The notes beneath the pieces were generated by a model. The model did not search any database. It worked only from the letters and a program-made list of their open reading frames with translations, and was not told the DNA's origin. Positions 31,263 through 31,338 of a DNA stretch of 64,000 bases are shown here, in pieces. The translations under genes were made by a program, and so were the position numbers. Within the stretch, counting starts at the first letter, position 1. Each line of letters opens with the position of its first letter. The stretch is from a virus: the IMG/VR virus record IMGVR_UViG_3300045988_094037. The stretch is one strand, 5' to 3'.

Positions 31263-31338
31263 TGCGGAGTAGCGTAATGGTTTAGCGCAGGGGTCTCTAA
31301 AACCTCGGGAGTGGGTTCGAATCCCACCTCCGCTGCCA
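31263..31338 (+). tRNA. suppressor tRNA (anticodon CTA, reads UAG); Gln-like features (G73)
   Basis: TGCGGAG-TA-GCG..CGC-A-GGGGT-CTCTAAA-ACCTC-GGGA-GTGGG-TTCGAAT-CCCAC-CTCCGCT-G-CCA; loop positions 34-36 are CTA, U33 and A37 are present; G73 as in the two Gln tRNAs of this window. Confidence 0.7.

Follow-up and report, generated by a model that had tools for sequence, protein, structure and literature searches.

A 64,000-nt stretch of viral DNA, IMG/VR record IMGVR_UViG_3300045988_094037 (the whole of it is called the window here), carries at exactly 31263-31338 on the + strand a 76-nt tRNA gene with anticodon CTA (ARAGORN) and, on both sides of it, genes interrupted in frame by the codon that such a tRNA would read, TAG (Table 1). 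The gene is the only CUA species among the 31 tRNA genes that ARAGORN predicts on the + strand between 12871 and 32397, which are accompanied by one tmRNA and one tRNA-like element; ARAGORN calls no tRNA for UGA or UAA in the window. All that the original prediction had said of it, a single tRNA at this position with a CUA anticodon and the discriminator G73, was recovered: ARAGORN returns the same coordinates and anticodon, Rfam agrees (tRNA model, 59.8 bits, E 2e-10), and G73 is read directly from the sequence. The other tRNA genes, the tmRNA and the tRNA-like element go unmentioned in that prediction. At minimum free energy (MFE), the CUA tRNA folds into a canonical cloverleaf that leaves position 1 without a partner: the acceptor strands, UGCGGAG and CUCCGCU, leave a U1.U72 mismatch ahead of G2:C71 and C3:G70, and the body has G10, a 9-nt D-loop with GG, a 5-bp anticodon stem, the anticodon loop CU-CUA-AA, a 5-nt variable loop, the T-loop TTCGAAT and a CCA end encoded in the gene. 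Identical or near-identical copies lie in the same place in the four closest relatives (L005-L008). ARAGORN labels the gene as tRNA-Pyl, a label that reflects the anticodon only and was rejected: a pyrrolysine (Pyl) tRNA has a 3-nt variable loop, a small D-loop and a 6-bp anticodon stem, and the architecture here is canonical, with none of these features.

The immediate surroundings of the CUA tRNA are compact. The ATG of the next open reading frame (ORF) stands 20 nt past its CCA, and the spacer contains AAGGAGG. This small basic ORF (31359-31673) was considered as a partner of the suppressor and set aside; it is conserved in the group and unlinked to the suppressor in other clades. Upstream, a perfect sigma-70-type consensus precedes both the ORF at 30838-31173 and the CUA tRNA and is possibly the promoter of the tRNA's transcription unit. 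Promoter-like sites as such are not enriched in 24900-32700 (30, against 25.1 +/- 4.6 in shuffles), and the sigma-A promoters that the original prediction put ahead of the early genes are accordingly no more than putative.

Does TAG end genes in this DNA? Gene structure supports the view that it never terminates and would be read through in ~20 genes across the window. When stops are limited to TAA and TGA, ~20 ORFs hold ~52 in-frame TAGs; the original prediction had counted at least 25 such genes, a figure that requires tiny ORFs between the tRNAs to be included, and had given two to six TAGs to each late gene, for which the actual range is 2-9. The kinds of gene that it listed as TAG-bearing do contain the codon: uracil-DNA glycosylase (UDG), RHH/HTH regulators, AAA ATPase, RNA ligase, GIY-YIG proteins, tail-fibre-like genes and lysins. 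Among 82 genes of at least 60 aa, 67 end in TAA, 15 in TGA and none in TAG, and the only codon that interrupts genes in the window is TAG, never TAA or TGA. Pfam matches run straight across these interruptions: PDDEXK_5 (residues 5-124) crosses TAG18 of its gene, GIY-YIG (residues 1-84, gene 19968..20750) crosses three TAGs, RHH_1 the TAG of its gene, NAGPA (52-206) two, and, in the endolysin, Phage_lysozyme2 (3-165) crosses six and Amidase_2 (203-353) two; the GIY-YIG match of the terminal gene also spans TAGs. Solved UDG structures (PDB) align from ORF residue 3, that is, upstream of the TAG at codon 36, and in the RNA ligase a putative catalytic-lysine motif, KMHG (found by eye), lies before TAG199 and the remaining domain after it. 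All nine endolysin TAGs are kept in independent assemblies that are ~95% identical.

Coding density tells the same story. A greedy ORF cover of the + strand from 4000 to 64000 reaches 66.7% under code 11, 79.4% when TAG is sense and 69.3% in a control in which TGA is sense; with TAG as sense, the tail-fibre block (25300-29850) climbs from 51% to 97% coverage and the lysin block (53700-56000) from 42% to 99%. The density gain on re-calling that had been proposed as a check is therefore present, and the reassignment of TAG across the window is borne out by its absence from gene ends and by homology on both sides of the TAGs. To the extent that sequence can decide, the TAGs are explained neither by pseudogenes nor by sequencing errors or split genes.

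Which amino acid does TAG specify? As judged from comparisons of DNA, it is glutamine, a clear answer though about half of the TAG columns are variable. The 120 closest endolysin homologues in the protein database have Q at the TAG columns, but part of this agreement is circular, the database having derived these proteins with TAG=Gln: their genes have TAG in the DNA and do not yield the stored proteins under table 11. For this reason the endolysin was compared instead with the DNA of 53 bacterial genome loci, mostly from Clostridia, in which the homologous gene is free of in-frame TAG. There, Gln stands opposite TAG40 in 20/20, TAG146 in 19/22, TAG225 in 42/43 and TAG274 in 43/44, encoded by CAG or CAA throughout; among 150 diverse cluster representatives, it is found at the same four positions in 21/23, 14/24, 136/141 and 135/142. 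Solved structures (PDB chains) also place Q opposite TAG40 (phi29 gp13) and TAG274 (PlyL).

Closer relatives agree at the codon level. A 65%-identical relative has CAA/CAG at 5/7 non-TAG codons facing window TAGs; the TAG11 column of the AAA ATPase is CAA/CAG in 34/46 non-TAG relatives; TAG161 of the NAGPA gene is CAA in 10/10; and a 49%-identical relative of the terminal GIY-YIG gene has CAA at 4/6 of the TAG positions that are not TAG in its own DNA. BLOSUM62 log-odds, calculated for all 20 amino acids over 33 TAG columns, give 32.5 bits to Q, 13.9 to E, 8.4 to K and -34.6 to W. Within the window, a by-eye reading of translations suggests that TAG373 of the tail-fibre-like gene 27276-28448 lies opposite a Gln of its paralogue 28474-29811 (EKITqTPGTELILNGG vs DDLTQTATIIFNCG), ahead of a C-terminal motif shared by the paralogues. 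The assignment to Gln in the original prediction thus agrees with the near-invariant endolysin columns, the log-odds and the codons of relatives, and is supported even though the three "conserved Gln" alignments offered for it are the weakest available. In the UDG segment YPPQKDVF, the column varies among Q, S, V, R and A across the five solved UDGs for which an alignment was displayed; the YIGQT Gln of the first GIY-YIG gene falls on a column that is Lys in 10/12 non-TAG relatives. A further TAG in the same gene coincides with a Trp column (TGG in 14/15).

Does the CUA tRNA itself look like a tRNA-Gln? Within the window, whole-tRNA similarity was discarded as an identity call: it returns Cys, Ser and Leu tRNAs as best matches because shared T-arms dominate. 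By D-arm, the top two among 704 distinct tRNAs are tRNA-Gln(UUG), and Trp tRNAs score 7 vs 16. In these phages, G73 was seen in Gln and Trp tRNAs (in the window also in Asn and Ser), whereas Glu, Lys and Tyr tRNAs have A73; many CUA tRNAs of relatives combine G73 with U1.U72, U1.C72, U1:A72 or A1:U72. Acceptor positions 2-6 and 67-73 of the CUA tRNA are those of the phage tRNA-Gln(UUG), which likewise has C3:G70; GCGG-type acceptor stems also occur in Met tRNAs, and this likeness is the weak point of the comparison. The identity set of E. coli glutaminyl-tRNA synthetase (GlnRS) comprises G73, a weak 1:72 pair, G2:C71, G3:C70, G10, U35, G36, A37 and U38; the CUA tRNA has G73, an unpaired 1:72, G2:C71, G10, U35 and A37. 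Taken together, G73, the weak or unpaired 1:72 and the Gln-type D-arm point to a Gln tRNA. The classical parallel is E. coli supE (glnV), an amber suppressor tRNA-Gln with a CUA anticodon, which is a mutant host tRNA and suppresses partially. The two share the UAG-reading anticodon, G73, a weak 1:72, G2:C71, G10 and U35; supE differs from the tRNA described here, which belongs to a phage and is fixed in its lineage, with a genuine mismatch at U1.U72 and with C3:G70 and A38, and which decodes a genome where UAG does not act as a terminator.

TAG is distributed very unevenly. Tail-fibre-like and lysin genes together hold 27 TAGs in 2,279 codons; in other genes the count is 10 over 13,530 codons (odds ratio 16, p = 1.4e-15). 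Strong terminator-like hairpins stand at either end of the tail-fibre block. Expressed per 1000 codons, the density is 10.5 in the tail-fibre-like genes, 14.6 in the two lysins, 21 in the two GIY-YIG genes, 17 in the minus-strand RHH/HTH cluster and 0.7 in the other 70 genes, a class that spans topoisomerase, ligase, NAD salvage, Thg1, PhoH, a vault-like protein and more. Altogether, 62/82 genes are free of TAG and have the same reading under either code. Codon choice differs as well: genes with at least two TAGs, compared with TAG-free genes, use less CAG (10% vs 38%), AAG (20% vs 41%), GAG (20% vs 36%) and TTG (17% vs 37%), which points to a distinct codon-usage class, beyond the difference in stop codons. 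This makes a specific replacement of CAG by TAG less likely, since the drop of CAG from 38% to 10% of CAR codons is accompanied by a halving of AAG, GAG and TTG. TAG positions turn over fast between relatives.

The explanation that, taken as a whole, is very probably correct is that the window belongs to an uncultured, ~148-kb tailed gut phage that uses code 15 (UAG=Gln), with a phage tRNA that would be charged by the host and would couple late and lysis functions to its supply. Enzymes of the host (GlnRS, or GluRS plus GatCAB) would attach Gln to the CUA tRNA; G73, the unpaired U1.U72, G2:C71, G10, U35 and the Gln-type D-arm fit reading by a GlnRS of the E. coli kind. Once charged, it would compete with the host release factor 1 (RF1) for UAG codons. 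Either code should serve to translate the 62/82 genes (about three quarters) that lack TAG. In the tail-fibre-like block and in the two lysins, TAG is dense and full-length products would appear only once the suppressor is abundant, and the output of virion-end and lysis proteins would in this way be coupled to the progress of infection.

Several observations weigh against one or another part of this explanation and are best considered with the rivals. Might the TAGs simply be true stops, in split or decaying genes or introduced by assembly errors, with the tRNA an occasional suppressor? The 62 TAG-free genes are compatible with this, as is the N-terminal position of TAG in several non-late genes (UDG codon 36, PDDEXK 18, AAA 11). 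However, only TAG interrupts genes and it never ends one; a single endolysin has nine TAGs and two catalytic domains that match at full length; TAG positions are identical across independent assemblies; the TGA-sense control adds almost no coverage; and homology reaches upstream of the N-terminal TAGs. The chance that there is no recoding is close to nil, and this rival is refuted to the extent that sequence can do so. A second alternative accepts read-through but has a different residue inserted: Glu, Lys or Trp, whose anticodons are one base from CUA, or pyrrolysine. In relatives, some other residue (K, E, S, L and, in one clear case, Trp) occupies about half of the TAG columns, and, besides the GIY-YIG TAG on a Trp column, two fall on Lys columns. 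Judged whole, the CUA tRNA is as similar to Lys and Trp tRNAs as to Gln tRNAs (66-71%, 704 tRNAs); G73 together with A1:U72 is likewise found in the Trp tRNAs of this phage group; and the CUA tRNA of the relatives L037/L038 looks Glu-like. Measured against the GlnRS set, the tRNA has C3:G70 instead of G3:C70, A38 instead of U38 and no G36, A36 being part of the definition of an amber suppressor (supE indicates that G36A is tolerated in E. coli); with G3:C70, G36 and U38 absent, charging by the host enzyme is a step that we infer. Still, the log-odds over the 33 columns favour Q over E, K and W, and four endolysin TAGs occupy near-invariant Gln columns of standard-code bacteria; Trp is opposed by the Gln-type D-arm, Glu and Lys by the A73 of their tRNAs here, and pyrrolysine by a cloverleaf unlike that of tRNA-Pyl and by Pfam scans of the window ORFs, in which no Pyl genes are seen. 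A residue other than Gln is very improbable.

A more serious contender concedes that the recoding is real and disputes its use as a late/lysis timer: TAG would have spread as a by-product of AT pressure and codon capture after a suppressor tRNA had been acquired, or it would serve as a lock on toxic or mobile genes, so that lysins, homing endonucleases and regulators stay silent in cells or competitors without the phage tRNA. The G-ending share of CAR, AAR, GAR and TTR in TAG-rich genes is about half that in TAG-free genes, and TAG positions change rapidly among relatives. The top densities belong to the GIY-YIG genes and the RHH/HTH cluster, not only to late genes; TAG is also present in UDG, the AAA ATPase, RNA ligase and homing endonucleases, none of them obviously late; a putative holin-like gene beside the lysins (55979-56314) has no TAG; and the CUA tRNA lies downstream of a perfect host-type promoter consensus, which would argue for early, not late, expression of the suppressor. 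Neither an RF2 gene nor an RF1 antagonist is seen in the window or in the 10 kb upstream of it in relatives, with ~84 kb of genome outside; this absence leans in part on Pfam over concatenated ORFs, a search of low sensitivity, and is weak evidence. Likewise, there is no phage synthetase among window ORFs or in the relatives' flanking DNA. RF2, an RF1 antagonist and a synthetase are optional accessory factors, seen in some code-15 phages. Against the non-timer alternative, the 16-fold late bias matches that of two other recoded lineages (bioRxiv 10.1101/2021.08.26.457843), and zero TAG in 62 genes is not predicted by drift alone. Recoding of this non-timer kind is possible but doubtful. Of the timing switch in the original prediction, the late-gene bias of TAG stands, while the presence of TAG in genes that are not obviously late tells against it; the pattern is consistent with the published timing-switch idea without proving it.

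How does this phage relate to known recoded systems? The code-15 phenomenon is already known; the lineage itself is absent from GenBank phage records, in which megablast finds no nucleotide match and the closest protein identity is 35-44%. Its relatives are 50 IMG/VR loci and several ENA, Logan and metagenome-assembled-genome (MAG) contigs, 140-149 kb. The endolysin homologues and the SLH-like tail suggest that the host is probably a member of the Oscillospiraceae or of other Clostridia. Code-15 gut phages comprise crAss-like, Lak, Agate, Garnet, Amethyst and Topaz clades (Borges et al., bioRxiv 10.1101/2021.08.26.457843); TAG=Gln has been proven by proteomics in crAss-like phages (PMC9523058), and the bias of recoded codons has been read as control of late and lysis genes in other phages (bioRxiv 10.1101/2021.08.26.457843). 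The present genome resembles these phages in having TAG opposite Gln, a phage tRNA(CUA), a coding-density gain under code 15, a preference of recoded codons for structural and lysis genes, and, as for their Firmicutes or Bacteroidetes hosts, a host with the standard code. Its ~148 kb are close to the size stated for the larger clades (bioRxiv 10.1101/2021.08.26.457843), and the window is without a terminase; it differs from code-15 gut phages in that no RF2 is found in the part seen here and its nearest GenBank phage proteins are only 35-44% identical. It would thus add to the code-15 phages an undescribed, ~148-kb, tRNA-rich lineage that probably infects Oscillospiraceae and has the same virion-end and lysis bias of recoded codons as other recoded phages. 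There is also a practical side: standard-code annotation of this group shatters tail-fibre, lysin and other genes, and the protein database has those genes at full length only via an applied TAG=Gln model.

Two described systems come closer in particular features. PhAss-1, of the proposed Phassvirus, is a human gut phage of ~136 kb with 36 tRNAs and 41 TAG-interrupted ORFs (PMC10607447). Both have a tRNA-Sup-CTA, a Gln assignment and no dedicated aminoacyl-tRNA synthetase (PMC10607447). Suppressor tRNA genes number three in phAss-1 and one in this window, and the gene content here is unlike that of phAss-1, with a tmRNA, a vault-like protein and NAD salvage genes; megablast of 25000-45000 against a phage collection that postdates phAss-1 (its inclusion was unchecked) gives no match. 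In other recoded gut phages, suppressor tRNAs are linked to theta ribozymes, which resemble the hepatitis delta virus (HDV) ribozyme, and have been proposed to trigger translation of late and lysis genes (PMC10879173). Unlike these, the window tRNA has no HDV-like ribozyme beside it in an Rfam scan at a relaxed threshold, its CCA being followed by 20 nt and the next ATG; it accordingly falls outside the theta-ribozyme-linked class (PMC10879173).

If the host synthetase reads the anticodon, how can it accept a tRNA whose anticodon has been altered? The relatives offer a handle on this question, because short and long-armed CUA tRNAs occur in related genomes. The CUA tRNAs of sister clades measure 88-97 nt, and pooling an unbiased IMG/VR pattern scan with the long forms from relatives gives 48 distinct long CUA tRNAs, 25 of which contain Y-U-Y-U-G-N-N in the extra arm. 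When the arms are aligned on this motif, the flanking positions pair in 25/25, 25/25 and 19/25, with several pair types (covariation), and the sixth position of the loop, which the motif leaves unconstrained, is A in 23/25. The arm is thus a 2-5-bp stem with a 7-nt loop that reads Y-U-(CUG or UUG)-A-R like the anticodon loop of tRNA-Gln; some loops equal true tRNA-Gln anticodon loops (for example, CUCUGAA, CUUUGAA and CUCUGAC), and UUCUGAG also occurs, in variants that have an alternative fold consisting of a longer stem with a CUG triloop. TAG columns in the long-armed clade also favour Gln. Long-armed CUA tRNAs are found in many unrelated IMG/VR phages, too; the window tRNA is without the extra arm.

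The long arm could be a second, decoy Gln anticodon, presented to a synthetase, an amidotransferase or a modification enzyme; it may instead be a relic with no decoy function. It is a tentative proposal that there are two interchangeable routes to a CUA tRNA acceptable as Gln, one short (U1.U72, G73 and the D-arm) and one long-armed, with a possible decoy. No description of a Gln-anticodon-like extra arm in CUA tRNAs was found in the literature searched in full text. Two further tRNA species of relatives are of note. The more distant L037/L038 have at 4679-4754 a CUA tRNA with a tRNA-Glu-like D-arm, G1:C72 and C73, and the UAG residue may accordingly differ within the group. In L009-L021, near 9902-9975 (e.g., L011 9902-9975), a tRNA-like gene is conserved whose 8-nt anticodon loop reads GUUAAAAG; the same gene in L013 (1212-1285) has the anticodon loop GUUAGAAG. 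In the sister clade it immediately precedes the AAA ATPase gene. ARAGORN assigns it the four-base "anticodons" taaa and taga; possible roles are suppression of ochre codons or of frameshifts, or that of a decoy.

Table 1. Coordinates of TAG-bearing genes and neighbouring features of the window, and of long CUA tRNAs in related loci
Feature	Position	Strand	In-frame TAG	Support and remarks
Cluster of four small genes	2114..3622	-	7	ORFs, Pfam
Gene of this cluster	2114-2533	-	2	
HTH-like gene of this cluster	2878-3267	-	1	HTH_36 below cut-off
DUF5659-like gene of this cluster	3242-3463	-	3	DUF5659 below cut-off
RHH gene of this cluster	3479-3622	-	1	Pfam RHH_1 22.7 bits (cut-off 20.5)
Uracil-DNA glycosylase	10046..10759	+	codon 36	PDB matches to E 1.6e-47; Pfam UDG
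PD-(D/E)XK endonuclease	14190..14603	+	codon 18	Pfam PDDEXK_5 4.6e-23
GIY-YIG homing-endonuclease-like	19968..20750	+	3	Pfam GIY-YIG 7.7e-9; between tRNA-Phe and tmRNA
Ordinary tRNA-Gln genes (UUG, CUG)	23085..23236	+		Both G73, A1:U72
AAA ATPase	23830..24951	+	codon 11	Pfam AAA
Strong terminator-like hairpin	25151..25179	+		13 pairs, 8 GC, T-run; just upstream of tail-fibre block
Small ORF heading tail-fibre block	25344..25601	+	2	CAA at both in some relatives' loci; no family match (Pfam, PHROGs)
Tail-fibre-like, Mtd_N	25610..26176	+	5	Pfam Mtd_N 1.3e-12; PHROGs tail fibre/spike families
Tail-fibre-like	26197..27258	+	2	Pfam Mtd_N sub-threshold; PHROG 35541
Tail-fibre-like	27276..28448	+	5, last at codon 373	Translation, PHROGs
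Tail-fibre-like	28474..29811	+	2	Pfam, PHROGs; TAG109 is CAG in L007/L008
Strong terminator-like hairpin	29818..29858	+		19 pairs, T-run; just downstream of tail-fibre block
Perfect sigma-70-type consensus TTGACA-17-TATAAT with TG	30797..30825	+		Consensus scan only
Suppressor tRNA, anticodon CUA	31263..31338	+		ARAGORN, Rfam, MFE cloverleaf, copies in L005-L008
RNA ligase	41553..42824	+	codon 199	Pfam RNA_ligase 2.2e-8
153-aa protein	51676..52137	+	codon 15	Full-length gene call in L001-L004; no family match (PHROGs, Pfam)
NAGPA + SPOR cell-wall enzyme (lysin)	53716..54570	+	2	Pfam NAGPA 6.9e-19, SPOR 1.1e-15
Endolysin, Phage_lysozyme2 + Amidase_2 + SLH-like	54573..55982	+	9	Pfam, bacterial homologues, PDB
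Small ORF	62667..62870	+	1	TAG is CAG in L003/L004; gene called in L001/L002
Coiled-coil + GIY-YIG protein, cut by window end	63217..64000	+	8, including YIGxS	Pfam GIY-YIG 1e-5
Long (85-97 nt) CUA tRNAs with Gln-anticodon-like extra arm	L009 2269-2359; L047 19029-19119; L030 17897-17993			
Long CUA tRNAs with the same kind of arm	L036 16946-17034; L048 17878-17967; others L113-L232			

The tRNA region contains further irregularities. The tmRNA at 20718-21038 matches the full-length Rfam model (76.8 bits); ARAGORN misses it in the window and calls it in relatives, where it predicts the tag peptide DNDYFENYLAA. In L006/L008, the distance from tRNA-Phe to the tmRNA is ~70-95 nt, with no gene between; in the window, a GIY-YIG gene lies there. 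The tRNA-like element is a 117-nt Rfam tRNA match at 23406-23522 (49.8 bits), which ARAGORN calls only as a tRNA with a 42-nt insertion. ARAGORN predicts neither tRNA-Tyr nor tRNA-Asp in the window. The PD-(D/E)XK gene at 14190-14603 stands between tRNA-Leu(GAG) and tRNA-Ala, where L006/L008 have a tRNA-Asp, which suggests that a mobile endonuclease replaced or displaced a tRNA gene at this site.

Beyond the tRNAs, a DUF2828/DUF7788 protein (32641-34161) is encoded beside an 813-aa protein (34573-37014) with major-vault-protein repeats and a shoulder domain; in tblastn searches of GenBank phage records, the latter matches only the huge phages LR756500-LR756503. Together, 32641-37014 looks like a vault-like module in a phage. 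A longer cluster, 41553-51494, looks like one for tRNA and nucleotide repair and NAD salvage: it encodes RNA ligase, an isochorismatase/nicotinamidase-like protein, a NAMPT-type phosphoribosyltransferase, NAD synthase and Thg1, as well as an AAA_33 kinase, three metallophosphatases, an SPFH protein and, by reading alone, a candidate PRPP-synthetase-like gene. Finally, in L233/L234, ~10 kb upstream of the point that corresponds to the window start, there are a PTH2-type peptidyl-tRNA hydrolase, a PARG-like macrodomain and a MazE-like gene, which add to the translation- and defence-related content of the genome.

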